Below, in pieces: positions 14,345 to 58,734 of a stretch of 64,000 nucleotides of DNA (position 1 is the first letter of the stretch; every line of letters begins with the position of its first letter). The position numbers and the translations under genes were made by a program. The DNA lies in NCBI GenBank assembly GCA_965227445.1, contig OZ245751.1, positions 4,178,499 to 4,242,498 of the forward strand. The letters run 5' to 3'. This DNA comes from Saprospiraceae bacterium. GTDB taxonomy: Bacteria; Bacteroidota; Bacteroidia; Chitinophagales; Saprospiraceae. The notes below the pieces were generated by a model, which worked only from the letters and a program-made list of their open reading frames with translations, was not told where the DNA came from and did not search any database.

Positions 14345-14575
14345 AAAGTCGGAAAGCGGAAAGCGGAGGTCGGAAATTAATCGGGACTGCTGAGACGATA
14401 GAGACTACAGAAACTGAAGGGACCGGAGTGACTTGATGAAATCGGTAGCCTGCGCTAAAGCTACGGCAGTCAGGGAAATCGGAAGGCGGAAGTAAAGGAT
14501 GGAGAGGACCGAAGCGACAGTAGAGATCTTAGAGACCAAGTCGCTAAAGTCCTAATACATAATACCTAATACCAT
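14345..14575. repeat. degenerate heptamer-periodic intergenic repeat block
   Basis: CGGAAAG/CGGAGGT/CGGAAAT and TAATACA/TAATACC heptamer runs. Shares words such as GGACCGGAGTGACTTGA with the blocks at 44.6 and 50.2 kb. Confidence 0.5.
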
Positions 14576-14584
14576 GTACCACAA

Positions 14585-16381
14585 CTAATAATCCAGATCC
14601 ACGCCACCTGATTCGGGTTCTTTTTGGTCTTCTTCAGTACGCTCTTGGAACTCCTGGCGGAAGGTTTTGCGGAAGCGCAATCGCTGACGGTAGGGATACA
14701 CAGTGACCAGCTCGCCGGCTTCCAGACGCTTTTGGACATCGATCCAGAAGGTGACATCAAACAGGTCTTGGTGCCGCTCCAGAAACATATCCCTGATCTC
14801 CTTGCGGCCGATCAAAAAACGCGGAAACTCTTCCGGGAATACGTCGTTAGCACCTACGGAATACCAGGGATCCGATGACATCTCTTCCTCGTAGGTCCGC
14901 GCCTCCGGAATGCGCCGGAAGTTGTAATCAGTCAAAAAACCGATCTCGTCGTAGTCGTAGAAAACCACCCTTTTAAGGCGGGTCACACCGAAGTTCTTCA
15001 GCAGCATATCACCTGGAAAGATATTGACGCAGGCCATCTGCTTGATCGCTTTCCCGTATTCCTGGATAACTTCCCGTGCTTCCTCCGGTTTCGCCGTTTC
15101 CAGATACAGATTGAGTGGAATCATCTTCTTTTCAATGTACATATGGCTGACCTCTACGGTATCCTCCTCTACAATGACTTTGGAACCACATTCATTGATC
15201 AGTTCTTCGAGCAGGTCATCGGATATACGGCTGCGATCGAACACAAAATTCTGAAAAACGTGGCTATCGGCCATCCGTCCGACGCGATCGTGCAGGGAGA
15301 CGATTTCGTATTTTTCCCGCACCTCCTTTTCGGTCACTTTCTTGGGTGCCGCGAAACGGTCTTTTATAACCTTAAAGACCATATTATAGCTCGGCAGGTG
15401 AAACACAGTCATTACCATACCTTTGATACCGGGCGTAAATTCAAACTGGTCGGTGGAAACCTGCAGGTGCCGCAAAAAATCACGGTAGAGCACCGTCTTA
15501 CCGTGCTTTTCGAAGCCGATGGAGTTGTACACCTCCCCCATGCTTTTGGTAGGCAGAATAGACCGCAAAAAGTCGACCTGCTCGCTGACGATGTCGGTCT
15601 CCACCAGGAAATAGGAACGGTTGTAGGAAAAGATGGAACTCACATCGTTCATTTCCAGTAATACCGTATCGACAAATATCCCCCGCTCCTCGTGCAGCAG
15701 AGGCAGCACAAACGGATGCAGTTTATCATCGAGGTAGAGCCGACCGACCACGTAGGCGGCCTTATTCCGGAAAAAAATGGATTTCAGCACCTCAATACGG
15801 GCGGTGCGAAAAGCCCGGTGACCATCGAGCAGCTTAGTGCGGAGGGTTTCGCAAATAAACCGAATGTCGCGGTCCAGGTCTTCAAAGGGAGCATCAAAAC
15901 GAAAGTAAGTAAACAACTGTTGCACCGTCATCTCAATGGGGTCCGTCAGGTAGAGGGTATGGTAGATTGGAATCGCTGACTTGAACTCCCGGTACGTTCC
16001 GGTAGCGTGGACAAACATAAGTTCCTCGTCCACACTCAACCCGCGATGGCTATGACGAAACACAGAATTGTAGTAGGTTTCCGCAATATTTCGGGTGTTG
16101 AAGTTGGTGATCTCATCGAGGAACATATCCTTGAGTTCCTGCCATATTTCCCGGTCGTGCCGCCGCTCGCCCAGAAAAGACAGTAATTTGTCGGTGGTAT
16201 CCCCGACCGAATCCCGGTACAGAGTAAGGCGGGATCGCGCATCTTCCTGGATGCCGTGCCAGTCACGGTGCTCAAAGCGGATCTTGGCCCGTTTGGTGAT
16301 CCGCTTGAAGAGGTGATGGTATTGTAAATAGGCCTCCAGGATTATGTAGGCCGCATCATAGGGTATGAGCTTCTTAAACAT
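14585..16381 (-). CDS. aceK: isocitrate dehydrogenase kinase/phosphatase
   Basis: FEHRDWHGIQ...IAETYYNSVF N-terminal region and C-terminal NIFPGDMLLKNFGVTRLKRVVFYDYDEIGFLTDYNFRRIP...DPWYSV...VFPEEF, strongly resembling E. coli AceK. Start trimmed to the internal ATG at 16381 (599 aa) rather than the track's 658 aa. Confidence 0.85.
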   Translation of the reverse strand: MFKKLIPYDAAYIILEAYLQYHHLFKRITKRAKIRFEHRDWHGIQEDARSRLTLYRDSVGDTTDKLLSFLGERRHDREIWQELKDMFLDEITNFNTRNIAETYYNSVFRHSHRGLSVDEELMFVHATGTYREFKSAIPIYHTLYLTDPIEMTVQQLFTYFRFDAPFEDLDRDIRFICETLRTKLLDGHRAFRTARIEVLKSIFFRNKAAYVVGRLYLDDKLHPFVLPLLHEERGIFVDTVLLEMNDVSSIFSYNRSYFLVETDIVSEQVDFLRSILPTKSMGEVYNSIGFEKHGKTVLYRDFLRHLQVSTDQFEFTPGIKGMVMTVFHLPSYNMVFKVIKDRFAAPKKVTEKEVREKYEIVSLHDRVGRMADSHVFQNFVFDRSRISDDLLEELINECGSKVIVEEDTVEVSHMYIEKKMIPLNLYLETAKPEEAREVIQEYGKAIKQMACVNIFPGDMLLKNFGVTRLKRVVFYDYDEIGFLTDYNFRRIPEARTYEEEMSSDPWYSVGANDVFPEEFPRFLIGRKEIRDMFLERHQDLFDVTFWIDVQKRLEAGELVTVYPYRQRLRFRKTFRQEFQERTEEDQKEPESGGVDLDY

Positions 16382-16445
16382 GCAGCAATTAAAAGTTCGT
16401 TCGTTAAGTAAAGTACGCAATCGCTTTAGCAAAACTAAACTCGAA

Positions 16446-19061: not shown

Positions 19062-19088
19062 CTACCATATTTATTCCATTAATCAAAA

Positions 19089-19116
19089 GGGGGTACGCTA
19101 CAACTAGCGTACCCCC
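19089..19116. terminator. bidirectional terminator hairpin
   Basis: Perfect 11-bp stem GGGGGTACGCT/AGCGTACCCCC with a 6-nt loop, between convergent genes. Confidence 0.6.
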
Positions 19117-20429: not shown

Positions 20430-21518
20430 TTACTTGAGCTGAGCCGGAGGAGACAGGAAAAAGCCCAGCTTGAGATAGGGAGCATTACCCGGACGCAATT
20501 CATAGGATGTCTGTCCTGATTGGGTCGCTTCCAGGCGGGTATTAAAATTCCACTGATAACCGACCTTGGCGTTCAGCCAGACCCAGGGTACCACTCGCCG
20601 TTCCAGGCTTATGCCCGTTTGAATTTCTGAGTGGTTGAAGTGGTAAATAGAGGTACCCTCTTCCAGCGTCCGGCCGGGCATATCGACGGAGTAGGAATTG
20701 CTGTTAAACTCGTATCCAAAGAGCAGGATGGTGCTCTTATCCACATTGTATCGTCCCTTAATTTGAGCGGGAAATACCGCTTCGATCCCCCATTTATCGC
20801 TGAAGTTGCGATTGTACATAATGAATGGCAGAGCCAGCGTACGCCGGAAGTTGTGGCTGAAGGCAGCACCTACCCCCCATTCAAAGTCATCACTCTTCTT
20901 GACACCGTACAGAAAGGTAGCATTATAGGCTGCATAGCGCTGATCAAAATCCACCCAATTGGTGTAATCACCGTTCAGGCGCATTTTCAGGCGACCGCCT
21001 ACGTATGTCCGGTCATCAATGGGCTTGAGGAAATATACTCCAAATCCGTTGCTGTTCAGCTTTCGGGTATCAATGGTACTGAAATACGAACTTTCCTTTG
21101 ATAACAGCTGGCTGTTGCCAAAAGCATAGATTTCGGGCTGATAGTCATATCCCAGCAGTAGTTTAAACCCTGGTTTATTGAGCAGCGGAATCTTCAACTT
21201 GACATTTAGCCGCTGGAAATAGTCCAGTTCCTGTGGAAGAACACCCCCCAACTCACTACTACCATTGATGGGACCGCCGGCAAAATAGTTGTAGGAGACC
21301 TCAAAACCACGACCTCTCGACTTATTATCGATACCCGGATCACAAAGGGTCGGACCACTGCCATTTCGCGGCAAATCGGCTACCGCCTGTGCCCGCGCTT
21401 TGCAGGGACACAAGGTGCACCAGGTACACCAGGTAACAAAACCGATCCATATCCATCGAACTATTCGCACAGTGGTTTTCTCTTTTGTTATTACTATCAG
21501 AGGACGCAAGTCAAGCAA
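20430..21518 (-). CDS. hypothetical outer-membrane beta-barrel protein
   Basis: Alternating amphipathic strands; aromatic-rich C-terminus ...YLKLGFFLSPPAQLK. True start uncertain, and the N-terminal 40 aa of the track ORF look non-native. Confidence 0.35.
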   Translation of the reverse strand: MLDLRPLIVITKEKTTVRIVRWIWIGFVTWCTWCTLCPCKARAQAVADLPRNGSGPTLCDPGIDNKSRGRGFEVSYNYFAGGPINGSSELGGVLPQELDYFQRLNVKLKIPLLNKPGFKLLLGYDYQPEIYAFGNSQLLSKESSYFSTIDTRKLNSNGFGVYFLKPIDDRTYVGGRLKMRLNGDYTNWVDFDQRYAAYNATFLYGVKKSDDFEWGVGAAFSHNFRRTLALPFIMYNRNFSDKWGIEAVFPAQIKGRYNVDKSTILLFGYEFNSNSYSVDMPGRTLEEGTSIYHFNHSEIQTGISLERRVVPWVWLNAKVGYQWNFNTRLEATQSGQTSYELRPGNAPYLKLGFFLSPPAQLK

Positions 21519-23629: not shown

Positions 23630-23640
23630 GATATTATAAA

Positions 23641-26600
23641 TTATCGGATGAAGAAATTAAGATCGATCACGGCCTGATTATATGCGTGGATCAGGTGGAG
23701 GTAATCGAGTTCGTTGCGCAGGGCTGCTTCCAGGGCCTGCACATACTGGAAATAATCGATGTCCCCGCTTTCCAATTGGCGGGTGGCCAGGTCGCGTAAG
23801 ATGCCGGCCTCCTCCCGGAGTTCAGCACCCTGGGTATCCAGTGCGTCTCTGCGGATCCGGACCGTCCGGGATTGCCCTTCCACCGAACGCAGAAGCTCTA
23901 CCCGCACCCGCTCCAACTGGTGTTGGGCTGCGATCTGTTCCAATTGCTGCTCCTGAATACGAGCTTCCCCCGCCTTGCGAAATAAGGGAATCTGTACCCC
24001 GGTAATGACTCCCATCAGGCTATATCGTGGACGTAGGCTTTGGTTGAAGTATCCTACCTGAAAGCTGGGGCCGAGTTCTTTCTCCCGCACCCGGGTCCGC
24101 AATTGTTCCATTACAACCTGTTCCTCCTGGGGCGCAAAAAGCAATTCCTGAGCAATGAGTTCCGCCGGTTGGGGAAGTGCTTCGTATGTCTCTGTCGTAG
24201 TCCAGGATTGACCGTTAAGCCAGGCTCTTTGCCGGAGTTCATTTAAGGCGGATTCAACCGCTACTCTGGCTTCCGCCAAATCCTGGTCCAGGCGAGTGCG
24301 CTGGTTACGCACCAGGGTCTGGTCCAGGCGGTTAATAGCACCGGTGCGAAGTTGCAGGTTGGTCTTGGCGACAACGGAATCCAGGGTAACACGCAGGTCG
24401 AGCAACCGGCGCAGGCGGGCCTCTTCGTACACCCAACGGTACCAGGCTTTAGTGACCTCGTACACCAGTTGGTATTCCAGTTGTTCCTGTTGGCTGAGGG
24501 CCACGTCAATACCCTGTCGAGCCATTTCCTTACGCTGTTTATCCGCCCCGATCTGCCCAAGGCTCTGTGTGATCGAGAGGTTGTAATCGATCAGGGTTCC
24601 GTCGGTTTGTCCGATCTGTAAACTGGTGCTCAAGGGAGGAATTTGTCGTGCCTGGTTCACCCCGAGTTCGGCCTGACGTACCCGAACGGCTGCCGTGCGC
24701 AGTATAGGGTGCCGCAGCGTAGCACTGTCTATGGCTGCTCCGAGTGTTAATGGTTCCGGGCTTCCGGCTTGCGCCAAAAGTTTGTGCCCGGGTAGTCCCG
24801 TAACCAGAACGATAGCCACTACCCCTGCCGCAACCTTGCGAATCGATTGGCGATTGACCAGGTAGTAGAAGATGGGCAGAACCACCAGAGTGAGCAGGGT
24901 TGCCGTGATTAAGCCCCCGATGACCACCGTTGCCAGTGGTTTCTGGACCTCAGCTCCATTCGAGGTTGATAGTGCCATAGGCAAAAAGCCAAGGGCCGCT
25001 ACGGTAGCAGTCATTAAGACGGGGCGCAAGCGGGTAAGTGCACCTTCCATGATGATTGCCCGGAGGTCACCCCGGTCATCGGTATACCACATTTCATTGA
25101 AGCGACTGATCAGGACAATGCCATTCAGCACCGCCACCCCAAATAATGCAATGAACCCGACACCGGCCGAAATACTAAAGGGCATGCCTCGAATCCAGAG
25201 GGCTACGACCCCGCCAATGGCGGCCAGAGGAACTGCAGAAAAAATCATGAGTGCGTATTTGAGTTTCCCGAAAGTGAAGTAGAGAAGTATAAAAATGAGT
25301 CCTAAAGCAGCCGGAACCGCCAGGGAAAGCCGACGCTGAGCGCGCTGCAAATTCTCAAACTCCCCTCCAAAAGTAATGGCATAACCAGGGGGGAGATCCA
25401 GGTTTTGCTCCAGAGTATTTTGCAGTTCATCGACCAGGGATGCTACATCCCGGCCCCGCACGTTTACTCCTATATTGATACGTCGGCGAGTATCCTCGCG
25501 GCTAATCTGCAGCGGACCTTCCTCGAAGCGCACCTCTGCCACTTCGCTCAGTGGAATGGGTTTGCCATTAGGTCGCCTGATGAACAACCGGTCCAGATTC
25601 ACATCCTCGCGGTATTGCTCTTGCAGGCGAACGACCAGATCGAAGGTCCGTTCATTCTCGTAAACCGTACCGGCGGTTTCTCCGGCGTAGGCCGAACGAA
25701 TGATGGTATTCAGGTCTTCGATATGCAATCCGTATTCGGCAATGCGAGCCCGGTCGTATCTGATCATTAACTGGGGTAAACCCTGGGTCTGATCCACCCG
25801 CACATCAGCGGCGCCCGGCACCCGCGCGATCAGGGGCTCCGCCTCATCGGCCAACGCCTTCAATACCTCGTTGTCCTCCCCAAATATTTTAATGGCAATG
25901 TCCGACTTGGCCCCGGTCATTAATTCGTTGAAACGAAGCTGGATGGGTTGGGTGAATTCGAAGGATGCGCCGACAACTACTGACAGGGCTTCCTTCATTT
26001 TTTCCACCAACTCTTCCCGGTCAGAGGCACTTTCCCACTCCGAACGGGGTTTCAGGATGATCATGATGTCCCCATCCTCCACCGCCATGGGATCGGTGGG
26101 TACCTCCGCCGTTCCGATCTTGGACACAACGTGGGTTATCTCCGGAAAGCGATCCAGCAGGATGCGCTCCGCCTTTGTACTGGTCCGGATGCTCTCGTCC
26201 AGGCTGGACCCGGGCTGGATGGTCATCTGCATGGCGAGGTCGCCCTCCTCCAGCGTCGGGATGAACTCCGCCCCCAGTGTCCGGAACAGCAGAACTGCCC
26301 CGACCAGTACGGCCAGGGCCAGCCCGAGGACGACGTACGGCAAACGCAAAGCACCTCGCAAAATAGGCCTGTAACCGTTCTGCAAACGCACTAACACCCG
26401 GTCAGACCAGGAATTGTGTCCCTGGATCTTTTTTTGCAACAGCAAGGAAGAAAGCATGGGGACGTACGTCAGCGAGAGGATCAATGCCCCCAGGATGGCA
26501 AAACTGAACGTCAGGGCCATGGGCCGGAACATCTTCCCCTCAATCCCAGTGAGTGTCATCACCGGAATAAAAACCACCAGAATGATAAAAACCCCGAAAA

Positions 26601-27945
26601 CTGCGGATCGGAATAGGCGGGACGCCGAATCGATGATGATATTATCCATTTTCGATTGGGATAATCGCTGTCCCGCATACTGGGAGACCAGAGCAAAGAG
26701 AACACCCTCGACAATAATTACCGCCCCGTCGACCACAATACCGAAATCGATGGCTCCTAATGACATTAGGTTGGCTGACACCCCGAACTGACGCATCATG
26801 ATCAGCGCAAAAAGCAGGGCCAATGGAATCACCGAAGCCACGATCAGGCCCGCACGCCAATTTCCCAATAGTAAAATCAAGACCACAATGACAATGAGGC
26901 CACCCTCCATCAGGTTTTTTTCAACGGTGTGGATGGCATCGGCCACCAAATCGGAGCGATCCAGGTAAGGTGTTAAGCGGACGCCCTCGGGCAGGGATTT
27001 ACGCACTTGTTCTACCCGCTCGTGCACATTGTTGATTGCTTCCGATGAGTTGGCGCCGCGCAGCATCAGGGTGATACCGCCCACTGCTTCCCCTTTCCCA
27101 TCCATTGTCATGGCCCCGTAGCGTTTGGGGCTACCAAAACCGACGGTTCCCACATCGCGAATCAGCACCGGTGAGCCCGAACGCTGAGCCACTACGATCT
27201 GCTCAATATCCTCGAGGGACTGGACGACCCCTTCCGTCCTGATGTAGTATGCATTGGTTTGCTTGGTGATATAACTGCCGCCGCTGTTCTGGTTGTTCAT
27301 AGCCAGTGCTTCGAATACTTCCGGTATGGCAATGTCATAGGATTGCAGCAGCAGAGGATCCAGAGCTACCTCGTATTGCTTCAGATAACCACCAAAGCTG
27401 CTCACTTCGATGATCCCCGGAATACCCGCCAATTGTCTTTTGACGATCCAGTCCTGTATGGTCCGCAGTCGCATGGGATCGAACTCGTGTTCGTACCCTG
27501 GTTCGACCTCCAGGACATACTGGTAAATTTCCCCCAGGCCGGTGGTGATAGGCATGAGTTCGGGTCGGCCTAATTCGGGGGGGATCTGTTGTTCGGCTAT
27601 CCCGATCTGCTCTTTTACGAATTGGCGGGCATCGAGAACCGGCATGCCCTCCTCAAATACGATGGTGACCACCGAAAGGCCAAAGCGGGAGATGGAACGT
27701 ATTTCAGTCACCCTCGGGATGTTGGCCATCGCCACCTCCACGGGGTAAGTAATAAATTGCTCCACCTCCTGAGGGGCCAGGGAGGTGGATACGGTTACAA
27801 CCTGCACCTGGTTGTTGGTGATATCGGGAACTGCATCAATAGGCAGACGTTGTGCGGAGTATACGCCGGCTATTATCAACCCTACGACTAGTAGTCCGAT
27901 GATCAGTTTGTTGCGTACGGAAAAACGTATGATCGCTTCAATCAT
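23641..27945 (-). CDS. CzcA/CusA-family heavy-metal RND pump fused in frame to a CzcC/TolC-like outer-membrane factor
   Basis: First about 1040 aa are a canonical CzcA (12 TM, MIEAIIRFSVRNKLII start). The frame continues with no stop through a signal-peptide-like RKVAAGVVAIVLVTGLPGHKLLAQA and about 390 aa of coiled-coil TolC/CzcC-like sequence. Confidence 0.8.
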   Translation of the reverse strand: MIEAIIRFSVRNKLIIGLLVVGLIIAGVYSAQRLPIDAVPDITNNQVQVVTVSTSLAPQEVEQFITYPVEVAMANIPRVTEIRSISRFGLSVVTIVFEEGMPVLDARQFVKEQIGIAEQQIPPELGRPELMPITTGLGEIYQYVLEVEPGYEHEFDPMRLRTIQDWIVKRQLAGIPGIIEVSSFGGYLKQYEVALDPLLLQSYDIAIPEVFEALAMNNQNSGGSYITKQTNAYYIRTEGVVQSLEDIEQIVVAQRSGSPVLIRDVGTVGFGSPKRYGAMTMDGKGEAVGGITLMLRGANSSEAINNVHERVEQVRKSLPEGVRLTPYLDRSDLVADAIHTVEKNLMEGGLIVIVVLILLLGNWRAGLIVASVIPLALLFALIMMRQFGVSANLMSLGAIDFGIVVDGAVIIVEGVLFALVSQYAGQRLSQSKMDNIIIDSASRLFRSAVFGVFIILVVFIPVMTLTGIEGKMFRPMALTFSFAILGALILSLTYVPMLSSLLLQKKIQGHNSWSDRVLVRLQNGYRPILRGALRLPYVVLGLALAVLVGAVLLFRTLGAEFIPTLEEGDLAMQMTIQPGSSLDESIRTSTKAERILLDRFPEITHVVSKIGTAEVPTDPMAVEDGDIMIILKPRSEWESASDREELVEKMKEALSVVVGASFEFTQPIQLRFNELMTGAKSDIAIKIFGEDNEVLKALADEAEPLIARVPGAADVRVDQTQGLPQLMIRYDRARIAEYGLHIEDLNTIIRSAYAGETAGTVYENERTFDLVVRLQEQYREDVNLDRLFIRRPNGKPIPLSEVAEVRFEEGPLQISREDTRRRINIGVNVRGRDVASLVDELQNTLEQNLDLPPGYAITFGGEFENLQRAQRRLSLAVPAALGLIFILLYFTFGKLKYALMIFSAVPLAAIGGVVALWIRGMPFSISAGVGFIALFGVAVLNGIVLISRFNEMWYTDDRGDLRAIIMEGALTRLRPVLMTATVAALGFLPMALSTSNGAEVQKPLATVVIGGLITATLLTLVVLPIFYYLVNRQSIRKVAAGVVAIVLVTGLPGHKLLAQAGSPEPLTLGAAIDSATLRHPILRTAAVRVRQAELGVNQARQIPPLSTSLQIGQTDGTLIDYNLSITQSLGQIGADKQRKEMARQGIDVALSQQEQLEYQLVYEVTKAWYRWVYEEARLRRLLDLRVTLDSVVAKTNLQLRTGAINRLDQTLVRNQRTRLDQDLAEARVAVESALNELRQRAWLNGQSWTTTETYEALPQPAELIAQELLFAPQEEQVVMEQLRTRVREKELGPSFQVGYFNQSLRPRYSLMGVITGVQIPLFRKAGEARIQEQQLEQIAAQHQLERVRVELLRSVEGQSRTVRIRRDALDTQGAELREEAGILRDLATRQLESGDIDYFQYVQALEAALRNELDYLHLIHAYNQAVIDLNFFIR

Positions 27946-33069: not shown

Positions 33070-33106
33070 AAGGATACGGATTAGAAAAGTCTATTCCGCA
33101 TCCTTT
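33070..33106. terminator. putative bidirectional terminator hairpin
   Basis: AAGGATACGGA...TCCGCATCCTT 11-bp stem with one mismatch, between convergent flotillin and Uma2 genes; overlaps the Uma2 stop. Confidence 0.4.
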
Positions 33107-33708: not shown

Positions 33709-33743
33709 TTATGGAAAAATACAACTAATTAAACTGCCAAACA

Positions 33744-38995: not shown

Positions 38996-39099
38996 AAGTT
39001 TTTATTTCCACTACACCGAGCCAAATTCTTGGGCCAAAAATTTGTCTGCTTTTATGGGCAAATCCGATGCTGTTATGAATCGCAATAAGCAAACCGTTT

Positions 39100-44543: not shown

Positions 44544-44644
44544 AGTTTTTGTTTTGGCCTAATTTAGGGTTTCCAAAAGATTTCTAGACACAAGATTGGA
44601 AATTATGGTAGTGAGTAACGGGTATTTGGTATTAAGACGATCCG

Positions 44645-45310
44645 GGGACTGGAGGGAACGGAGGGACTGAAGTGACCGGAGAGACTCGTCTGGGCCGGGC
44701 TGCTTTAGTTATGTCTGGCTGCTGTATCTCTGCTCTTTATTGCGTAGTGCGTAGTGCATCGAGCGTAGAGACAGGGAGCGACTGTCGAGAACAAAGAGAC
44801 TGGAGAGAATGAAGAGACTGGAGGGACTCGTCTGGGCCGGGCTGCTTCGTTTTGCTGGTAGCTGCTGTGTCTTTGCTCTAGATTGCGTAGCGCATTGAGC
44901 ATTGAGCGTAGGGGGCCAACGCAAGAACGGTGCGCCATGAAACACTGTGAACCACCGCCCGTACGGGCTGCGCTCACCGCGTGAAAAAGGTAGATTTAGA
45001 GTTTAGACTCAAGATTAAAGACTGAAGACTGAATTCGAAATCGGAAATCGGAGGTCGGAAATCGGACGGTTAATGACTTCACTCCCACCGCTGAAGCGGA
45101 TGGGCTTAAACTGCCAACCGCCAACTGAGAACTGGAGACTGCCTACTGAGAACTGCCTACTGAGAACTGCCTACTGAAGACTGAATTCGAAATCGGACGG
45201 TTAATGACTTCACTCCCACCGCTGAAGCGGATGGGCTTAAACTGCCAACCGCCAACTGAGAACTGGAGACTGCCTACTGAGAACTGCGAACTGCCTACTG
45301 CCAACCCTCC
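44645..45310. repeat. composite mosaic repeat (left copy): heptamer-word region, an 85-bp core, then two units of about 120-150 bp
   Basis: The 85-bp core CACCGCCCGTACGGGCTGCGCTCACCGCGTGAAAAAGGTAGATTTAGAGTTTAGACTCAAGATTAAAGA is near-identical to 50507-50580. The units contain TCGAAATCGGACGGTTAATGACTTCACTCCCACCGCTGAAGCGGATGGGCTTAAACTGCCAACCGCCAACTGAGAACTGGAGACTGCCTACTGAGAACTGC. Confidence 0.75.
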
Positions 45311-45390: not shown

Positions 45391-46746
45391 TCATTTGATG
45401 TGTTTCGGCTTCATGTGTGCAGCTCCATGCCCATAGTAGGCATCCATGGCTTTCTGATACCCTTGCCGCAGGAGGTCCAGGTGACGTTCTGTGGAAAAGG
45501 TATTGGCTTGCTCCAGGCCTTTTTGGACAGTCTCCCTACATAATGTATCATCACCGGCCAGGCGTTCCATGGCACCGGCGATGGAAGATACATCGTAGGG
45601 GTCGACATAAATAGGTGCATCACCTCCCACCTCGGGCAAGGATGAACAATTTGACGTAATGACCGGTACGCCCAGCGACATGGCCTCCAATACCGGCAAC
45701 CCGAATCCTTCGTACAGGGACGGAAAAATGAGTGCCTTGGCTCCCCGTAACAAATACATTAGTTGTTGCCGGGGAAGGTACATATACCGTCGAACCGCTT
45801 GACTACCATCCTCCTTCACCTGCTTAATTCGCTTTTTTTCTTTTTTGTACAACCACCCGTCACGGCCGGCGATAATCAGTGGCAACTCTGTATTAGCCAT
45901 GCCGGCCGCCTCCAGAATACGCATTACATTTTTCTTGGGCTCTATGGCTCCGAAAAACAGAAAATACCCTTGTGGCTTAAGATTGAAATTTTTGCTCAAT
46001 ACACTCCGCAGTTCATTGGCCGACATATCGCGAATGGCCGTGGGCACCTGAACCGATTGATAGGTAACCTGTATCTTGTCTTCCTCAATACCAAAGACAC
46101 GCTGCAGGTCGCGTTTACTGTGCTCGGAGATGACGTAAATATGATCGGCCTGATTCAGGGAGGCCGTAATTATATTACGGTAATGCCGCAGCATAACGTT
46201 CGTACTGTGCGGCAAGATCAATGGGATCAGGTCGTGAAGAGTCAGTACATTGGGGACGCCCTTCATGCGGACAGGAAGGGGGCTTGTACTGTGGTAGATA
46301 TCAATACCAGCCTTCCGGGGCATCGAAATCTTAAACGATTTCGGAAAGAAAAAGGCATAAAACTGAGACACGCGATACAGTGAGGGCACATTGTAGGTAT
46401 CACTGCCGGTTGGCAAATGCATTTCCATCCCTCGTCTTTCCACCCATTCCGGTGGGTGAAGCTGCCGGGGCCGGAGAGGCATATTCAATAGGTAAGGCAA
46501 GCTGTATAGTATGGCATGGGTGCCGTACCGAAGCACTTCTTTGGAATCAGCCTCGCCGTGTACCATCAGTCGTTGAATAAAACGAGACCACTTCAAATCA
46601 GGCCGTCGTCCTAATTTATCCATCCCGTACAGTACACTGACATCAATCCCGCCCGAAGTCAGTGTTTTAGCCAACTCCCGGGAATAGGTGCTCAACCCGG
46701 TACCTTTTTTCAGGGACATAGCAAATCCGTCCAGGCATACCTTCAT
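45391..46746 (-). CDS. GT4-family glycosyltransferase (retaining, GT-B)
   Basis: C-terminal domain with E-x7-E-like region FPSLYEGFGLPVLEAMSLGVPVITS. Start trimmed to the internal ATG (MKVCLDGF...). Confidence 0.75.
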   Translation of the reverse strand: MKVCLDGFAMSLKKGTGLSTYSRELAKTLTSGGIDVSVLYGMDKLGRRPDLKWSRFIQRLMVHGEADSKEVLRYGTHAILYSLPYLLNMPLRPRQLHPPEWVERRGMEMHLPTGSDTYNVPSLYRVSQFYAFFFPKSFKISMPRKAGIDIYHSTSPLPVRMKGVPNVLTLHDLIPLILPHSTNVMLRHYRNIITASLNQADHIYVISEHSKRDLQRVFGIEEDKIQVTYQSVQVPTAIRDMSANELRSVLSKNFNLKPQGYFLFFGAIEPKKNVMRILEAAGMANTELPLIIAGRDGWLYKKEKKRIKQVKEDGSQAVRRYMYLPRQQLMYLLRGAKALIFPSLYEGFGLPVLEAMSLGVPVITSNCSSLPEVGGDAPIYVDPYDVSSIAGAMERLAGDDTLCRETVQKGLEQANTFSTERHLDLLRQGYQKAMDAYYGHGAAHMKPKHIK

Positions 46747-46765
46747 ATTAGTGGTGTTTCTAGTA

Positions 46766-48319
46766 CTAAACGTATCCGCCTTTGGGATTAATGAATTGAA
46801 TAATAGAGCGGCGATCAGATTCAATAGGCTGAACGATCCGGGCAATTTGGTCGGCAAAAGCCCCGGGGTCGGCATGGACATCTTCTACCCGGAAGACGTG
46901 CGCTTTATCCCCCACTTTTGACTGGAATCGGCGTACCATGTTCGTGTGATTATGAGCCACTTCCAATAATCGTTCGGCGTGTATGTCCCAATCTTTTCCA
47001 TCGTGCCGGGCTGAAGAACGGGCAATGGCTTCGGGGTCACGATATACAAATATGTAGACCGGACGTATTAACAAATGCCTTATTTTTTCAATGTAGTAAA
47101 TATTATTCGGCACCTTCCAGCCCCAGTAGGGGTAGGTACGATTCCGTTGATGAATGACTGGTCCCAATTGCTTCAGTGCGAGGTGCTTGTTTTTGGGTTT
47201 AATCTTGAATGCGGGGTCTTCGTACTGGCTGGTTCTCACCTCTCCCATGTATACACCTGCACGCTGCAGAGAGCCGGCAATCAGACTGGTACCCCCGCGG
47301 GGACATCCCAGAACGACAAAGGTTTTTTTAGTCTTGGGAAAAAGGCGAATCAACCAGGCAAAGGAGCGAAGATGCCATCCGGCAGTATGAAGCCGACGTA
47401 CTCCTCCCCGCAGGATGCCCTTTGCTCTTTTCGACGACCTTGATAAAAACCCGGGGGGGGGCAAAGGCTCTCCCTGGGGTTGATCCGTCTTATCGGGAGC
47501 CGGTAATGCCGGAATGCGTTTGTTTAGGTTCTCAAATATAGAGGGATCACCTACTGCTACCTCCTTTTGTTCAATCGCCTGTAGCAGAGCCTGATCTATT
47601 GGATCAAGCCAGTCATTCAGGTAAGTATTCAACTCCTTTCGGAAAAAATGGGTCATAAAGACCGTCTGTTGCAGGCTGAGGTCATTCCGGTGCCGTTTGG
47701 GTACTCCTTTATTAAACTGAGTAAAAGCTTTTTCTTTCACCTGATCCGCCAATTTGGCCAAATCGGGCAGCTCCGACTGGCTGTAGCCCAATTGGGCACC
47801 CAGCCGCAATAGAAATGCTTCACTGTGAAAAGCAACCTCATCGTAGGTAGACGCCAGTACCCCCGGCTGCGACACCCACGACTGATGGATGCTCATTTGG
47901 TTTTTGACGGTAGCCATAGCAGAGGCTACGGAATCAACATTCATGAATGCTCCGCGTCCGCGGTTCCGGGCGCGTCGTCCGGCATCGACAAGTGACAGCG
48001 TATTGTCGCGAGGATCACGAATATTTGCATGTCCCAAGCTATTTCCGTCCTGCAGCATGGCTATCAGATAAGGAGAAGGGGCCCCATGCGTTTTGATGGC
48101 CAGTATGCGTCCAGGTTCCAATGCATTCTCTATCTGGGTTGCCATTGATTCGTCGAAGGCCTCAGTTTGTTTGCCATTCAGGAAATTCACCCGGCGGTCC
48201 GTAAAAAAAGGTAAATCAAGTCGTTCCTGGGGGTGACCTAACGCCTCCAGCAAGCCTTTGGTAAGTTCAAAAGCAAGTGTGCTGCCCGATTTTCGAATGC
48301 CATAACTAAAGTAGAGCAT
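46766..48319 (-). CDS. tandem double sulfotransferase-domain protein
   Basis: Two P-loop-like 5'-PAPS-binding motifs: RKSGSTL near the N-terminus and GCPRGGTSL in the second half, each followed by sulfotransferase-like length. Confidence 0.5.
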   Translation of the reverse strand: MLYFSYGIRKSGSTLAFELTKGLLEALGHPQERLDLPFFTDRRVNFLNGKQTEAFDESMATQIENALEPGRILAIKTHGAPSPYLIAMLQDGNSLGHANIRDPRDNTLSLVDAGRRARNRGRGAFMNVDSVASAMATVKNQMSIHQSWVSQPGVLASTYDEVAFHSEAFLLRLGAQLGYSQSELPDLAKLADQVKEKAFTQFNKGVPKRHRNDLSLQQTVFMTHFFRKELNTYLNDWLDPIDQALLQAIEQKEVAVGDPSIFENLNKRIPALPAPDKTDQPQGEPLPPPGFLSRSSKRAKGILRGGVRRLHTAGWHLRSFAWLIRLFPKTKKTFVVLGCPRGGTSLIAGSLQRAGVYMGEVRTSQYEDPAFKIKPKNKHLALKQLGPVIHQRNRTYPYWGWKVPNNIYYIEKIRHLLIRPVYIFVYRDPEAIARSSARHDGKDWDIHAERLLEVAHNHTNMVRRFQSKVGDKAHVFRVEDVHADPGAFADQIARIVQPIESDRRSIIQFINPKGGYV

Positions 48320-48336
48320 ATAATGTATACTTCCCG

Positions 48337-49059
48337 CTACCCCGGAAACCGGTAGCCAAATTTATGTATTTCAAAAGCGTATTCCCGTTCAACAATTCCC
48401 TGTGTTTCGGAATCGAACAGGAAGGCAGGAATTGCCCAATCGGGCCTGATCCCTCCTTTGCTATTACCCAATCGCTTACTATCCCAGGGAATTTGCAGCT
48501 TCCGACAAATACGCGCCATCTCTTGCTCCAGATTTTCGTACCGGATCACCTCATCCAGGATGTAATCCTCTCCGATACAATAAATGCGTCGATCCACCGG
48601 AAATTTACCGTCTAAGATCCAGTGCCGGAATGCCATTCGCTCCTCCTCCGGAGTTCCGACCGGAATTCGGGCTTTACTTTTTTTAAAAAAATAGGAGGAA
48701 ATGACTTTCGTAAACGGGTTGCGGATGGTCGCGAACTTGAGATATCTTTCCCAAACCTCCGTTTCCACCTGACGGCGAACTTTGCGTGCCGACATGTGAT
48801 TATGCCATTTTGCCATCTTTTTTTGCCGCAAGGCCCGGACAAAGGGATAGGAGTATTGAAACTGCCACGTTCGCTCTTCCACGTACCTGTTTCCCCTTTT
48901 ACCTATGATACCATGGCTGGATTCATAAGGCAAGGCCTGATCACCAGGACTATCTTCCTCCGGTCCCAAGCAGAATGGTTCGAAGTAGTACTCAACCGAC
49001 GTGCTTGCCGTCTTGCGGGTCTTCAGGAAAATGAACTTATATCTATGGCTAACCAGCAT
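48337..49059 (-). CDS. sulfotransferase-family protein (family-2-like)
   Basis: FLKTRKTASTS N-terminal PAPS-binding motif; 240 aa. Confidence 0.5.
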   Translation of the reverse strand: MLVSHRYKFIFLKTRKTASTSVEYYFEPFCLGPEEDSPGDQALPYESSHGIIGKRGNRYVEERTWQFQYSYPFVRALRQKKMAKWHNHMSARKVRRQVETEVWERYLKFATIRNPFTKVISSYFFKKSKARIPVGTPEEERMAFRHWILDGKFPVDRRIYCIGEDYILDEVIRYENLEQEMARICRKLQIPWDSKRLGNSKGGIRPDWAIPAFLFDSETQGIVEREYAFEIHKFGYRFPG

Positions 49060-49078
49060 AAGAAGATTTTAACCGTGA

Positions 49079-50314
49079 TTAATCATCGTCATCGTCATCT
49101 CCTTCATCTATTTGGCCGGGAGACAGACAATCCGGATAAACCTCCTCTGTCACCAATCGGTGGTAGCATTCAATACCGGGATGAAATTTTCCCATAGTCA
49201 CCAGATTAGACATAATCCCTTTGAATAGCCCCAGAAAATTCCGCAGTAAAAACAAATAGGGTACTAGCCTGGGGGCTTCACTCCGTATATCTCCGGTAGC
49301 AAAAACAATGCCAGGAATAATGATCAGCGAAAGGGGAAAGAGGTATTCGGCAAAAAGGGGGCCGCGTCTTTTCTCCCGGCGAATGCCCAGCTTATTGCGC
49401 ATGGCTTCGCCCATATACCCGGTTTCGTATAGTTGGTAAATGCGCTTCCGCAAATCGACGTCAGCCATCGGAGCTTGCTCCAGAGAAGCCATAAAGTCCT
49501 TTTGTTCCTGCTTGCGACCGGTAGCAATCAGCTTCCGGTCCTTGACCGCCTTGGTAACCTTATTCATGGTTAACATGATAAACCCTCCGCTGACCAGAAG
49601 CAACAACAGCATCAGCAGGGTTACCAGTGGATTTAACCAGAGCAGAATAACCAGGTAAACGGGAATGGTTACCAAATCACTCAGAGCCGACGAGAACTGA
49701 CGCATCACATTTCCGCAGGAAAAGGCCAGGTTCGTGGTGATTCGACGTACGGGCCGAAGGGCAAAACGATCGGCAAATTTATACTGCAATGCCTCCAGCC
49801 CCCGGGCCGCGGCCTCCACGATGGTGGCCCGCATCACATCCAGTGTTCGCAAATGGAACACATAATTGATCCGGATTCCGGCAAATACAAACCCCACGAT
49901 CAACCCCATTAGCACGGAGATCGATACCGGTGTGATCGGGACCTCAACATCCCCGATCGATAACCTATCCAGGGAATTAGTCACATATCGGGTTAAGGGT
50001 ATGAGCAAGAGAAACCCACCAGCCGTACACAGGGAACTGACTACACTCAATACCGCAATCCGGATCAAACGGTAACGATTAATCCGCAGGAAACTCCGAA
50101 TGACCCGCAAGAGGGGCTTCAGGTAATCCCGCTGCACAGAAAAGGCCGCTATTGGTTGGCGAATGGACAATTGTAGCGTATTGCGTGGGTTCGCTGTAAA
50201 GCTACGTTTTTTTTCACTGTCAGTGCGTTGGAGACTGGAGGGACCGGGAGTGACTTGAGGGACTCGCCAGAGTAGGGGCTGTTCGGTTGCGATTGATTGC
50301 TGTGCTCTGCTCAT
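49079..50314 (-). CDS. membrane protein resembling an ABC-exporter transmembrane domain without nucleotide-binding domain; poly-Asp C-terminus
   Basis: Six predicted TM helices in an ABC type-I exporter-like arrangement, no Walker motifs, ends DEGDDDDDD. The 5' 90 nt lie inside the repeat block, so the start is uncertain. Confidence 0.35.
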   Translation of the reverse strand: MSRAQQSIATEQPLLWRVPQVTPGPSSLQRTDSEKKRSFTANPRNTLQLSIRQPIAAFSVQRDYLKPLLRVIRSFLRINRYRLIRIAVLSVVSSLCTAGGFLLLIPLTRYVTNSLDRLSIGDVEVPITPVSISVLMGLIVGFVFAGIRINYVFHLRTLDVMRATIVEAAARGLEALQYKFADRFALRPVRRITTNLAFSCGNVMRQFSSALSDLVTIPVYLVILLWLNPLVTLLMLLLLLVSGGFIMLTMNKVTKAVKDRKLIATGRKQEQKDFMASLEQAPMADVDLRKRIYQLYETGYMGEAMRNKLGIRREKRRGPLFAEYLFPLSLIIIPGIVFATGDIRSEAPRLVPYLFLLRNFLGLFKGIMSNLVTMGKFHPGIECYHRLVTEEVYPDCLSPGQIDEGDDDDDD

Positions 50315-51045
50315 ACTTGCGTCGAGCGTGGAGCGTAGGGACTGGGAGTGACTGAAGTGAACGAAGCGACCGGAGGGATTCGCCTGAGCCTGGCTGCCTC
50401 GTTTTGCTTACGGCGATTGGATCATTGCTCTTGATTGCATGGAGCGTAGTGCGTCGGGCGTCGAGCGTCGAGCGTGGAGCGTGGAGCGTCGAGCGTACCA
50501 CGGAAGCACCGCCCGTACGGGCTGCGCTCACCGCGTGAAAAAGGTAGATTTAGAGTTTAGACTCAAGATTAAAGATTGAAGACTGACTTCGAAATCGGAC
50601 GGTTAATGACTTCACTCCCACCGCTGAAGCGGATGGGCTTAAACTGCCAACCGCCAACTGAGAACTAGAGACTGCCTACTGAGAACTGCCTACTGAGAAC
50701 TGCCTACTGAGAACTGCCTACTGAAGACTGAATTCGAAATCGGACGGTTAATGACTTCACTCCCACCGCTGAAGCGGATGGGCTTAAACTGCCAACCGCC
50801 AACTGAGAACTAGAGACTGCCTACTGAGAACTGCCTACTGAAGACTGAATTCGAAATCGGACGGTTAATGACTCCAATCCCACCGCTGAAGCGGATGGGC
50901 TTAAACTGCCAACCGCCAACTGAGAACTGGAGACTGCCTACTGAGAACTGCCTACTGAAGACTGAATTCGAAATCGGACGGTTAATGACTCCAATCCCAC
51001 CGCTGAAGCGGATGGGCTTAAACTGCCCACTGACAAATCGTGCCT
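50220..51045. repeat. composite mosaic repeat (right copy): heptamer-word region (GAGCGTN)n, the 85-bp core, then four units of 145/117/117/about 80 bp
   Basis: Same orientation and near-identical to the left copy at 44645-45310. GAGCGTC GAGCGTG GAGCGTG GAGCGTC heptamers at 50459-50495. Confidence 0.75.
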
Positions 51046-56654: not shown

Positions 56655-56695
56655 AGGTGTGTTATTCCTTTTGGGTGTTTTGGAATGATTGGATA

Positions 56696-57199: not shown

Positions 57200-57504
57200 A
57201 CATGGAGTTGCCGTACCCAGCGATCTGCCTTTTTAGTCACGGATTTACGCTCGTCGGATTGCAATACTTCAATCTTTGGCAGGAGCCATTGACGAAGGGA
57301 CTCGTCCTTGGCCGCACGCCTCCCTAAGAAATCCATGGTGGTATTCAGAACGACCCAATCCAACCAGGTTTCCAGGTTGTGTGCAAAAAAGATACATAGA
57401 TTCCAGGATAACCCAACTCCCGATCCGCTTAATAATTGAAGTGGTTTTACCGATAAACCTCAAGAATAGCACTCACAGTAATGAGAAGGTTGAAGGATCA
57501 ATGA

Positions 57505-57930
57505 TGAATGCTCAATATGAGTTTGCTTTTTGGGCTTTCGCCAGGCTTCAGTGGGCAGTAGGCAGTTTAAGCCCATCCGATTCAGCGGTGGGAGTGGAGT
57601 CAGTAACCGTCCGATCTCGAAGTCAGTCTCCAGTTCTCAGTTGGCAGTAGGCAGTTTATCTCCGATTTATTGCCATCAGTCGCTAACGCTCGTGTCCGGT
57701 TTCAAAATGCCTGCTCAACTCCGCTACGGTGAGCATTGCAGGTTGAGTTGAAAACCGTGAACCGTGCCCGCCTACCGAAGCTTTGCGTAGGCAGGGACCG
57801 TGAACCACTAAAGTGGTATGATGCTGGGGGATTCCGCTTTAACACCACAGCTGAAGCTGGGGCCTGATAATTATCCTGCCACGTGGTGCCTGAACCGTGG
57901 ACCGTGGACCGTGAGCCGTGAACCTCAAAC
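57505..57930. repeat. inverted, diverged copy of the mosaic repeat unit plus (GAACCGT)-type heptamer runs
   Basis: 57552-57672 is the reverse complement of the AAGCCCATCCGCTTCAGCGGTGGGAGTGAAGTCATTAACCGTCCGATTTCGA unit with about 10% divergence. ACCGTGAACCGTG and CCGTGGACCGTGGACCGTGAGCCGTGAACC recall 39462-39550. Confidence 0.6.
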
Positions 57931-58680
57931 GTTCGAATCCATCCAGATCTGCCATTGGCCTTCGGCATTGCGGCGCCAGATCAGGACGTACTTCCCTCCG
58001 TAGCTACCGGAGCACTGCCCGATCTCCAGAACCAGGTCCTTGCGCACCGGCTGAACCACCAGGGGGCTGAGGTGTAACGAATACTCTTCGTTATTCATGT
58101 AGCTGTACGTCGACGTGATCTGCTCACGCCCGACGATCATTGGCCGGTGATTGTAGTAGAGGGCTTCGGGTTCGTATAGTTGCTCTACCAGTGCGGCAGC
58201 ATCGTGCTCATTACACAATTCGATCCACTTGTCACGGGCCTGGTCAAGAGAAGCAAGGTCGGTACGACCGGGCGCCAAAGGCGCTACAAAATCCAATTCC
58301 CGCAGGTATTGCCCGTTTACCTCACGCCAGATCACCAATTGGATGTAATCGGGACCACTGGCGGGTTTTAACCGGCTGATATCGTAGCGAACATCGGTAT
58401 TGGGATTAGCAAGCTCGCAAAAGATGGGCTCTATGGAATTGACGGTCTGTTGCCGACTCAGCAGGGGCGCCAGGTACTTTTGCCGCTCTCCGGCAGTAGT
58501 AATCTGTCGTCCTTCTCCCGTAAGGGTGATGGCATGCCCGGTGTAATGCTTTTGAATGTATTGCGGCTGCTCGTTGAGCAGGCGTTGCCAGATGTGGTTC
58601 GCTGCTTCACATTCAGTGGGCAGATTAGTCGCTGGCGGGACAGACATCCCTACCAGGAGGTATAGAATAACGGTGAGCAT
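57925..58680 (-). CDS. NTF2-like fold protein, two tandem DUF4440/SnoaL-like domains
   Basis: Signal peptide; two repeats ending ...LVIWREVNGQY and ...YVLIWRRNAEGQWQIWMD. Confidence 0.4.
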   Translation of the reverse strand: MLTVILYLLVGMSVPPATNLPTECEAANHIWQRLLNEQPQYIQKHYTGHAITLTGEGRQITTAGERQKYLAPLLSRQQTVNSIEPIFCELANPNTDVRYDISRLKPASGPDYIQLVIWREVNGQYLRELDFVAPLAPGRTDLASLDQARDKWIELCNEHDAAALVEQLYEPEALYYNHRPMIVGREQITSTYSYMNNEEYSLHLSPLVVQPVRKDLVLEIGQCSGSYGGKYVLIWRRNAEGQWQIWMDSNV

Positions 58681-58689
58681 AGTTAATTA

Positions 58690-58734
58690 GGTTTGAGGTT
58701 TGAGGTTTGAGGTTTGAGGTTTGAGGATTTGAGG
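58690..58734. repeat. tandem heptamer (GTTTGAG)x5 plus a degenerate sixth unit
   Basis: Read directly; abuts the start codon region of the 57925-58680 gene. Confidence 0.85.

Follow-up and report, generated by a model that had tools for sequence, protein, structure and literature searches.

The intergenic DNA of a 64-kb chromosomal stretch from a Saprospiraceae bacterium (Bacteroidota) was found to contain arrays of 7-nt words repeated head to tail, which gain and lose whole units between strains and alternate with hairpin modules; two composite blocks of this kind evolve in concert. These repeats are probably heptanucleotide variable number tandem repeats (VNTRs) that change by whole-unit slippage, decay into related words and are re-amplified, and the blocks in which they are embedded with the hairpin modules are probably subject to tandem duplication, gene conversion and recombination. 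The stretch (hereafter the window, meaning the whole 64 kb analysed) otherwise carries ordinary chromosomal genes and one tRNA. Its gene map was assembled from open reading frames (ORFs), Pfam matches and gene calls on matching public contigs. Together with 13.7 kb of flanking DNA, about 78 kb of the source genome was covered.

For comparison, 78 other genomes (1.45 Mb pooled) were sampled, and Tandem Repeats Finder (TRF) was run across 80 loci. One protein of the window is encoded identically on a 6.8-Mb contig (ctg12166) of ENA assembly ERZ25074452, and the strain behind this assembly (the ENA strain) is 99.2-99.5% identical to the window across positions 3498-64000, in three contig pieces. 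The nearest genome in a one-genome-per-species collection was an uncultured Saprospiraceae metagenome-assembled genome (MAG; L002), with 90% amino acid identity and about 80% nucleotide identity in genes, followed by Phaeodactylibacter species (69-71% amino acid identity). A metagenome contig from another relative (L096) showed 93-95% amino acid identity. These comparisons place the host in the Saprospiraceae, in agreement with an earlier interpretation of the window (the sequence-only reading), which had assigned it to Bacteroidota from gene content and had drawn attention to the repeats.

TRF arrays of period 7 were present at every locus that the sequence-only reading had named, far beyond chance. 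An independent scan of the window for perfect arrays (at least three copies, unit 4-30 nt) recovered only period 7 (3 arrays, 464 nt) and period 14 (1 array). Every one of the 20 non-redundant arrays with a period of 7, 14, 21 or 28 was intergenic, in a window of which intergenic DNA makes up 13.8% (binomial p = 6e-18); arrays of other periods lay inside coding DNA in 10 of 15 cases, and their units were mainly multiples of 3. Intergenic base-match frequencies were 0.335, 0.333, 0.317 and 0.314 at lags 7, 14, 21 and 28, against about 0.25 at the remaining lags, and the lag-7 match exceeded mononucleotide shuffles with z = 17, while the autocorrelation of coding DNA showed the 3-nt period only. 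These pooled values include a 56-copy array, and per-gap values were relied on instead. Among the 20 gaps of at least 150 nt, six carried the signal (lag-7 match 0.31-0.58; 0.18-0.30 in the other 14), and these six were exactly the loci already named, including all four of the longest gaps in the window (725-1069 nt). At least ten unrelated heptamer words occur in the 64 kb. Longer words are common to several loci, as had been proposed: GGACCGGAGTGACTTGA at 14420 returns at 50242 with a 1-nt insertion or deletion (indel), and GACTGGAGGGAC is found at 44647, 44816, 50233 and 50252 (four matches, 0.26 expected). The description of the blocks as strictly period 7 had to be given up, since they also hold hairpin modules that are not heptameric and higher-order units of 117, 131, 142 and 145 nt, and the heptamer phase is lost across a 54-nt hairpin core (7x7+5).

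The arrays change in whole units. Sixteen indel events separate the window from the ENA strain; ten of them were multiples of 7, and all ten fell inside arrays (322, 7, 7, 21, 7, 28, 7, 14, 14 and 14 nt; binomial p = 1.2e-5). The other events comprised two 1-nt indels outside arrays, in-frame indels of 9 and 6 nt within genes, a 24-nt insertion beside a CATCATT run and a complex module replacement at 57.62-57.70 kb. Thus, the arrays behave as heptanucleotide VNTRs that gain or lose whole units. The largest of them, a perfect (GACGGCT)x56 on the plus strand at 38604-38995 (TRF 56.0 copies, 100% match), has only 10 copies in the ENA strain, a difference of 322 nt or 46 units. Indels of 7 nt were found in the array at 39459-39547 and in the region 45037-45302, one of 21 nt in the region 50225-50497, four (7, 28, 7 and 14 nt) in the hairpin-core units at 50591-51035, whose number per locus was equal in both strains, and one of 14 nt each at 57752-57924 and 58689-58734. 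Gains and losses were both seen, and at 57.89 kb adjacent units had switched word jointly, from CGTGGAC to CGTGGTG, in the ENA strain. The degenerate block at 14.3 kb kept a constant length in six strains or samples; instability is predicted by the purity of an array. At orthologous sites of L002 the same words occurred in other numbers (TACTTCA x12 vs x2.3), so that an array is retained at its site over long periods while its length turns over fast. The sequence-only reading had suspected an active generating mechanism, namely slippage, a repeat-templating enzyme or a non-autonomous element; the strain indels of 322, 28, 21, 14 and 7 nt bear out the ongoing change, and slippage is the option that they support. 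Two in-frame coding repeats, TCATCG x2.8 in a 411-aa gene (49083-49099) and CAGGTACAC x3.7 at the start of a DUF6268 gene (21403-21435), also differ by one unit (6 and 9 nt) from the ENA strain, which indicates that unit-wise slippage acts in genes too, only for multiples of 3.

Long perfect arrays are hard to assemble, and short-read contigs break at them; that the repeats are assembly artefacts is nevertheless scarcely credible, because the same positions carry them in the window, ENA ERZ25074452, JGI and Logan contigs, the GTDB MAG L002 and JGI12048 contigs, that is, in three or more independent assemblies. The templating enzyme did not fare well either. A telomerase-like or retron-like reverse transcriptase, or one related to the defense-associated reverse transcriptases (DRT), that adds 7-nt units would explain the strict unit length and the perfect 56-copy array, which are the only points in its favor. 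Against it, the ten or more unrelated words that coexist in the 64 kb would require many templates and so make such an enzyme unlikely, the arrays are internal and not terminal, units are lost as well as gained, and the same class of repeats occurs in many unrelated bacteria and phages. Moreover, Pfam scans of 40 ORFs identified no reverse transcriptase, transposase or integrase within the window. We consider templated synthesis very improbable.

Two of the six gaps, at 44.55-45.39 kb and 50.3-51.06 kb, are paralogous composite blocks of roughly 750-850 nt each, with the module order A-A-B-C(n), n being two or four. In an A module, a heptamer/18-mer stretch rich in G is combined with a GC hairpin and a run of GCGTNGA heptamers. 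In the first block, two tandem A modules with a period of about 142 nt occupy 44640-44915 (plus strand; TRF, repeat family D4), upstream of the start of an M1 peptidase gene; they contain a GGGACTG GAGGGAA CGGAGGG ... stretch, the hairpin GTCTGGGCCGGGC and a GCGTAGN/GAGCATT run, and they are kept in L002 and L096. Their counterparts in the second block (50225-50497, plus strand; TRF) include GAGCGTC x7.9 at 50442-50496, and the first of them overlaps the predicted start of the 411-aa gene. The B modules, recognized by alignment, lie on the plus strand at 44949-45036 and, as its paralogue, at 50505-50590; that at 45 kb has the palindrome CACCGCCCGTACGGGCTGCG followed by an AGACTGA/AGATTTA run, and both blocks share the CCGCCCGTACGGGC palindrome with AGACTGA-type heptamers. 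The C units of the first block (45037-45302, plus strand) are two in number (period 131, 1.9 copies, 95% match by TRF) and follow a GAAATCG (= CGGAAAT) array of 4.3 copies at 45037-45066; here the hairpin core stands between NACTGNN heptamers (AACTGCC, AACTGAG, TACTGAG, GACTGAA). The second block has four C units at 50591-51035 (plus strand; TRF periods 145 and 117 nt) with (ACTGCCTACTGAGA)x3.9, and this 14-mer forms TRF arrays at 45138-45177 and 50671-50724. A single inverted C unit lies on the minus strand at 57514-57660, with CAGT-type heptamers on the plus strand.

The C units measure 117, 131 or 145 nt, and their lengths thus differ by 14 nt. Each is built on a core of about 65 nt around the hairpin CCCACCGC-TGAA-GCGGATGGG, with NACTGNN heptamers on both sides, and the unit folds on one strand as a long imperfect palindrome (-36 kcal/mol, z = -3.0). 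A profile search with the core identified seven copies in the window, distributed over three loci and lying in both orientations (nhmmer matches at 45058-45122 and 45189-45253, from 50591, 50736, 50853 and 50970, and at 57554-57618 on the plus strand), the matching copies of the ENA strain, one copy in L002 and three metagenome contigs. No core was found in about 95 other loci or in viral contigs, and the metagenome scan gave only these 3 contigs, all from relatives. Zero compensatory pairs were counted in the core, whose copies are too conserved for covariation to be assessed. Short-read contigs from several metagenomes terminate inside the modules (contig L136, for example, has an end in the B module at 44949-45036). 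This pattern indicates that the modules exist in more than one copy and were not created by a single assembly.

The composite blocks evolve in concert. In an alignment of the B-C junction, the two blocks of the window grouped together, apart from their positional orthologues in L002 and L096, and they have derived characters in common that the orthologues lack. This grouping indicates that dispersed blocks are homogenized within a genome. The two direct blocks also enclose a cassette of 5.7 kb (window 45391-50314) with a GT4 glycosyltransferase gene, two sulfotransferase-like genes and the 411-aa gene. This arrangement is found in the window, in L001 and in the more distant L002, whereas L096 has the order porin, YceI, DUF6702, M1 peptidase, a single composite block (L096 3680-4270) and aldo-keto reductase, with the cassette missing. 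Judged from these gene orders, the simplest history would be that L096 lost the cassette by recombination between two direct blocks. The composite blocks thus mark a recombination breakpoint, and the question of whether they coincide with breaks in synteny, raised together with the repeats, is answered positively by the single block of L096. Elsewhere in the window, a metagenome strain (L089, JGI 3300045056) lacks about 1050 bp at 61637-62700, including a 232-aa ORF without a Pfam match and part of a DUF4440/SnoaL-like gene, with flanks 99.8% identical.

The same modules invite a different explanation, in which the composite units, and most clearly the C unit and its core, are non-autonomous elements comparable to miniature inverted-repeat transposable elements (MITEs), to bacterial interspersed mosaic elements (BIMEs) or to hairpin-forming doublets of repetitive extragenic palindromic (REP) sequences (REPINs). 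They would be moved by a transposase encoded elsewhere, such as a REP-associated Y1 transposase, and the arrays would be a part or a by-product of them, which is compatible with slippage. Several observations point this way: the core is present seven times in both orientations and also at other loci of relatives (L097, L098), is restricted to one lineage and nearly invariant across species, and lies in a long palindrome; small hairpins within the heptamer arrays are present or absent between species, one of them nested in the loop of another (L002 10890-10960 and L096 3845-3915 compared with window 50320-50340); short-read assemblies break at the modules; and a related 21-nt palindrome occurs in the heptamer mosaics of a Flavobacteriaceae genome. 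On the other hand, the window contains no transposase, and the C unit showed neither a target-site duplication nor a clean empty site. Phaeodactylibacter offered no orthologous sites for comparison, synteny being gone past the YceI-porin-YceI trio. C units in direct tandem with lengths in 14-nt steps fit unequal exchange and not transposition, their number per locus is equal in two strains, and the 45- and 50-kb blocks stand at orthologous positions in L002, hence are old and not recent insertions. A mobile element of this kind is therefore possible but unlikely, and the earlier suggestion of a non-autonomous element would apply to the hairpin-core module only.

Returning to slippage with decay and re-amplification, we propose that the repeats would arise as follows. 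Arrays gain and lose whole 7-nt units at a rate that rises with their purity, as the strain comparison shows, probably by strand slippage or unequal exchange. Point mutation would then degrade arrays to related words, and variants re-amplified locally would produce the mosaic of words and the super-periods of 14, 21 and 28 nt, a step suggested by the families of related words. At a larger scale, modules of 117-145 nt would duplicate in tandem, gene conversion would keep dispersed blocks alike, and homologous recombination would delete or insert the genes between blocks. The unit of 7 nt may correspond to the segment of DNA gripped by the replicative polymerase, the only published proposal in the sources consulted (Mrazek et al. 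2007, as cited in PMC4679880 and PMC4692102).

Several points weigh against this account. Slippage in itself gives no reason for a unit of 7 nt, and it leaves the contrast between this array-rich lineage and the array-poor Phaeodactylibacter samples without an explanation. Uniform slippage does not predict patchiness either: array-bearing loci cluster at 14 kb and 38-59 kb, only 6 of the 20 larger gaps are affected, and no heptamer arrays were found between 15 and 38 kb of the window or in the 13.7 kb flanking it. The array counts cover only about 78 kb of the genome, which limits what they say about genome-wide abundance, and absolute copy numbers were taken from assemblies and may carry assembly error. 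Relatives have such repeats at other loci as well. Moreover, the core of about 65 nt is nearly invariant over three species whose genes differ by 12-20%, as expected of selection, mobility or strong homogenization and not of passive junk.

Another reading takes the arrays as functional cis elements. They would be either phased binding sites of a regulator that binds RNA or DNA, or structures in transcribed leaders and trailers by which translation or the stability of mRNA is adjusted, a role proposed for the TAACTGA repeats of Beggiatoaceae, with copy number acting as a phase-variation switch. An AGGTTTG (= GTTTGAG) array of 6.4 copies (58689-58734, plus strand; TRF 97% match) reads (CAAACCT)n on the minus strand, where 8 nt separate its end from the ATG of the downstream 251-aa gene (57925-58680). 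At the other position of this type, the first GACGGCT unit provides the TGA stop codon of a 1622-aa DUF3686/AAA ATPase gene (33744-38612), the array starting within the last codons. The gaps are also biased in orientation: five of the six rich gaps separate co-oriented genes and one separates convergent genes, while none of the four divergent gaps is rich, the same bias as for the G-rich heptamers of Xanthomonas and Nostoc (PMC4692102). The same word persists at orthologous sites across species, and stable tetraloop hairpins accompany the arrays. However, many unrelated words are difficult to reconcile with a single sequence-specific binder, the orientation of C units relative to flanking transcription is inconstant, one block lies between convergent gene ends, and copy number appears unconstrained (10 vs 56 units in nearly identical strains). 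The neighbors are ordinary housekeeping genes and not surface or contingency genes. No covariation was detected, and no Rfam match was obtained at gathering score for the whole window or at E <= 1 for 38.4-59 kb. Sites resembling sigma-70 promoters and intrinsic terminators were not above shuffled expectation, by a promoter model that is unfit for Bacteroidota. As a general explanation, cis regulation is doubtful and not supported, and a regulatory role is possible for individual arrays. No dedicated function has been demonstrated; side effects on neighboring genes, such as a changed length of the 5' leader or the supply of a stop codon, are plausible.

Three further candidates were rejected. 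Made up of contiguous 7-mers, or of modules of 117-145 nt that have no unique spacers between them, the repeats are no CRISPR array; the absence of a covariance-model match in Rfam speaks against a known structured RNA family; and a G-quadruplex reading of the G-rich A modules failed, since no canonical motif (at least four G3+ tracts, loops of at most 7 nt) was found on either strand of the window by a regular expression search.

The remaining heptamer sequences of the six gaps show how arrays and hairpins are combined. The degenerate block at 14345-14573 (plus strand; TRF and sequence) is composed of the words CGGAAAG/CGGAAAT/CGGAGGT, GGACCGGAGTGACTTGA and CCTAATA, with a TRF unit AAAGCGG/CGGAAAG at 14345-14367, and lies between two convergent genes, a 63-aa ORF and AceK; its lag-7 match is 0.357, against 0.282 at neighboring lags. 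Downstream of the GACGGCT array, a word that L002 also has, at a contig end, the region 39.09-39.55 kb consists of a segment bounded by inverted repeats between direct ACCGTGN arrays. Its left arm is a degenerate GCCGTGN/GGACCAT array (39088-39137, plus strand; TRF, repeat family D3, sequence). The segment itself, of about 320 nt (39141-39459), ends in 14-nt inverted repeats (GCAGGCTGACCGGG at 39141-39154, CCCGGTCAGCCTGC at 39446-39459) and holds three stable UAAC-loop hairpins (GTGCC-TAAC-GGCAC twice, CCGGC-TAAC-GCCGG once), with RNA folding z = -2.8 on the plus and -2.7 on the minus strand. The right arm is the ACCGTGA (= GAACCGT) array at 39459-39547 (plus strand), of about 12 units (x10-12 by TRF) with the variants GGACCGT, GGGCCGT and GGACCTT, inside which the short-read contig L136 terminates. 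It is followed by TCCTACT (= TACTTCC) x2.3 (39565-39580, plus strand; TRF), about 100 nt upstream of the YceI start, and at the orthologous site of L002 the TACTTCA/TACCTCC word runs to 12 units. At 57752-57924 (plus strand), AACCGTG arrays are broken by hairpins, namely the 30-nt hairpin CCCGCCTACCGAAGCTTTGCGTAGGCAGGG (57767-57796) and CCACAGC-TGAA-GCTGGGG, and TGAACCG x4.9 (57891-57924) touches the stop of the 251-aa gene. Finally, two very stable hairpins at 58779-58871 (z = -6.4 on the plus and -7.6 on the minus strand) have 13-bp stems of GGTTTGG/CCAAACC, using the word of the adjoining AGGTTTG array; contigs L089-L095 terminate at window positions 58785 or 58854-58855. Long spurious ORFs run across the blocks at 38557-39024, 44705-44977 and 50220-50531 on the minus strand and at 57276-57650 on the plus strand. 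The minus strand of (GACGGCT)n is free of stops and reads (SRQPSAV)n for 155 aa, and gene callers could annotate hypothetical proteins there.

Arrays of period 7, 14, 21 or 28 were 20 in the 64-kb window and 7 in 12 kb of L002, against 0-2 short ones per 21 kb in Phaeodactylibacter, so that their abundance is specific to this lineage. Heptamers as such are more widely distributed. In the pooled 1.45 Mb of 78 other genomes, the only perfect arrays of at least four copies had period 7 (7 arrays) or period 8 (3 arrays). Long perfect heptamer arrays were found in Pontibacter burrus (GAATTAT x16), a Vicingaceae MAG, a Gracilimonas MAG and Christiangramia bathymodioli (GTCTAAT x11, TAATGGA x14 and others). 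The architecture of the C. bathymodioli locus (L061 5120-5720, 8380-9260 and 13580-14220) is the same as that of the window, with gaps of about 1 kb, several heptamer words (GTCTAAT x11, GGATAAT x14, CCACTTT, GTAGACT, ACTGAAA/ACTGTTT) and tandem modules of about 140 nt, in which the palindromic motif CTTCGCTAAAGCTTCGG(C/T)GG matches a hairpin of L096 at 19 of 21 positions. This 21-nt palindrome of L096, CTTCGCCGAAGCTTCGGCGGG, recurs with 2-4 mismatches at four sites, and in the 1.67 Mb searched all four lie within heptamer-rich modules of Christiangramia. The match is unlikely to be due to chance, although it was observed post hoc and its significance is inflated.

Nearer to the window, a Phaeodactylibacter-like MAG with a porin 67% identical (L009 1-155) has (AGGCAGT)x8.9 followed by ACTGCCC and CACTGCA runs. 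This array belongs to the ACTGCC word family of the C units, and the family hence reaches past the immediate lineage, though the hairpin core was not found in L009. An ACTG core as a signature across phyla (STRR1, STRR3, TAACTGA, NACTGNN) was tried and set aside as a weak lead, because only 4 of 32 words from other genomes contain ACTG/CAGT, not convincingly above the roughly 5% expected. Viruses carry such arrays as well: (GACGGCT)n with at least 4 units was found in 31 viral contigs from IMG/VR (L104-L134; 56-69% GC), 22 of which form one related phage group, where the array has a variable 5-13.7 copies beside TTGCCCACA iterons and between a RusA-like/replication module and terminase genes (for example, L133 3780-4260). 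A few other viral contigs (L124, L126, L128, L129 and L130) contain 7-15 different heptamer arrays in 10-14 kb.

The kind of repeat described here is already known from cyanobacteria, five Bacteroidetes and other bacteria. A strict 7-nt period across unrelated words had been taken as unusual; heptanucleotides are, however, the most abundant class among long simple repeats with units of 5-11 nt, for which polymerase slippage over a 7-nt contact was suggested (Mrazek et al. 2007, as cited in PMC4679880 and PMC4692102). The resemblance to the short tandemly repeated repetitive (STRR) sequences of heterocystous cyanobacteria (Mazel et al. 1990, as cited in PMC4692102), also noticed from the letters of the window, is supported. 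In the STRR and long simple sequence repeat class, as in the window, 7-nt units stand head to tail, several unrelated words occur per genome, location is strongly intergenic, copy number varies extensively between close relatives, and slippage has been proposed. The window has tandem 7-nt units of multiple words in non-coding DNA with whole-unit polymorphism. It differs in its host, a member of the Saprospiraceae, and in arrays that are interleaved with lineage-specific hairpin modules in higher-order units of 117-145 nt. STRR1, STRR2 and STRR3 have the words CCCCAGT, TTGGTCA and CAACAGT, from which those of the window also differ.

TAACTGA and other heptamer direct repeats were described in Beggiatoaceae, 15 Cyanobacteria and five Bacteroidetes including Gramella (now Christiangramia), mixed with one another in long intergenic regions that relatives lack (MacGregor 2015, PMC4679880). 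Long arrays exist in Gramella and Aequorivita, relatives without the repeats have shorter gaps, close Cyanothece strains show indels in 7-nt increments, and a role in gene rearrangement was suggested (PMC4679880). The window shares the mixture of intergenic heptamers in a member of the Bacteroidetes, the 7-nt increments and the link with rearrangement; one of its arrays ends 8 nt before a start codon, and its commonest family, NACTGNN, resembles TAACTGA. Nevertheless, two consecutive TAACTGA units, with up to 2 mismatches allowed, had no match on either strand of the window, most of its arrays follow stop codons or sit mid-gap instead of next to start codons, and Saprospiraceae are not among the taxa of MacGregor 2015 (PMC4679880).

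The G-rich heptamers GGGNATC and GGGGA(C/T)T of Xanthomonas and Nostoc favor co-oriented gaps and differ in length from one related genome to another (Rehm et al. 2015, PMC4692102). The window repeats are likewise intergenic, variable in length, preferentially located in co-oriented gaps and absent from divergent ones, and the G-rich strand of the A modules is antisense to the gene that lies downstream; yet most words are not G-tract words, and a four-tract G-quadruplex motif is lacking. The repeats of the window therefore fit the general heptamer class and fall outside the TAACTGA and G-quadruplex families. A likeness also exists to the REP/BIME sequences and REPINs of Proteobacteria (PMC3116915) and to the small dispersed repeats of Nostoc, in that short GC-rich extragenic palindromes form mosaic blocks with nested insertions, lineage-specific families and homogeneity within a genome; the window has intergenic hairpins (z from -2.7 to -7.6) in A-A-B-C-C module order. 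Unlike REPINs, the C units stand in direct tandem (117, 131, 145 nt) and not as inverted doublets, and they are tied to heptamer arrays; unlike REP/BIME systems, no REP-associated tyrosine transposase or other transposase was found within the window. The small dispersed repeats of Nostoc were reportedly described by Elhai et al. in 2008.

Some further features of the window were noted. A gene for a putative Uma2-family endonuclease lies back to back with the 1622-aa gene (DUF3686, DUF7902 and AAA ATPase; 'ATPase involved in DNA repair') at 33091-38612. The AceK gene (isocitrate dehydrogenase kinase/phosphatase; 14585-16381, minus strand, E = 7e-115) belongs to a family best known from Proteobacteria. 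A 1434-aa ORF (23641-27945, minus strand) joins an AcrB/RND domain (residues 5-1030) to a C-terminal OEP/TolC-like domain (residues 1071-1239), a fusion that appears unusual. Moreover, a pair of 45-nt direct repeats (2287-2331 and 11123-11167; 73% identical, core TTCGTAAAGTAATG), unrelated to the heptamer families, sits at the 5' ends of a short-chain dehydrogenase gene and of the gene region 10299-11111, and may be a common regulatory site.

Arrays and hairpins might also be parts of one system, in which a small hairpin element, related across classes of Bacteroidota, seeds or targets the arrays, and a trans-acting protein (a Y1-type transposase, a nuclease or a replication/repair factor) sets the 7-nt register. 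This idea is based on the 19/21-nt match between the palindromes of a Saprospiraceae relative and Christiangramia, within the heptamer mosaics of both, on the 3' ends of hairpins that abut arrays of different words, and on the nearly invariant core of about 65 nt. We regard it as improbable.

Heptamer repeats have been on record from scattered bacteria for over 30 years, and neither their mechanism nor their function is established. The window represents a well-documented new example and not a new phenomenon. To the earlier cases, the window adds a well-resolved one in a new family, strain-level evidence that arrays change only in whole 7-nt units with an instability predicted by purity, and composite blocks that evolve in concert and mark the indel of a 5.7-kb gene cassette. 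In practice, short-read assemblies are interrupted at such blocks, spurious ORFs arise in them, such as that at 38557-39024 (minus strand), and they are usable as VNTRs for strain typing. If arrays and hairpins did prove to be one system, it would provide the first mechanistic handle on the 7-nt length of bacterial long-unit repeats.

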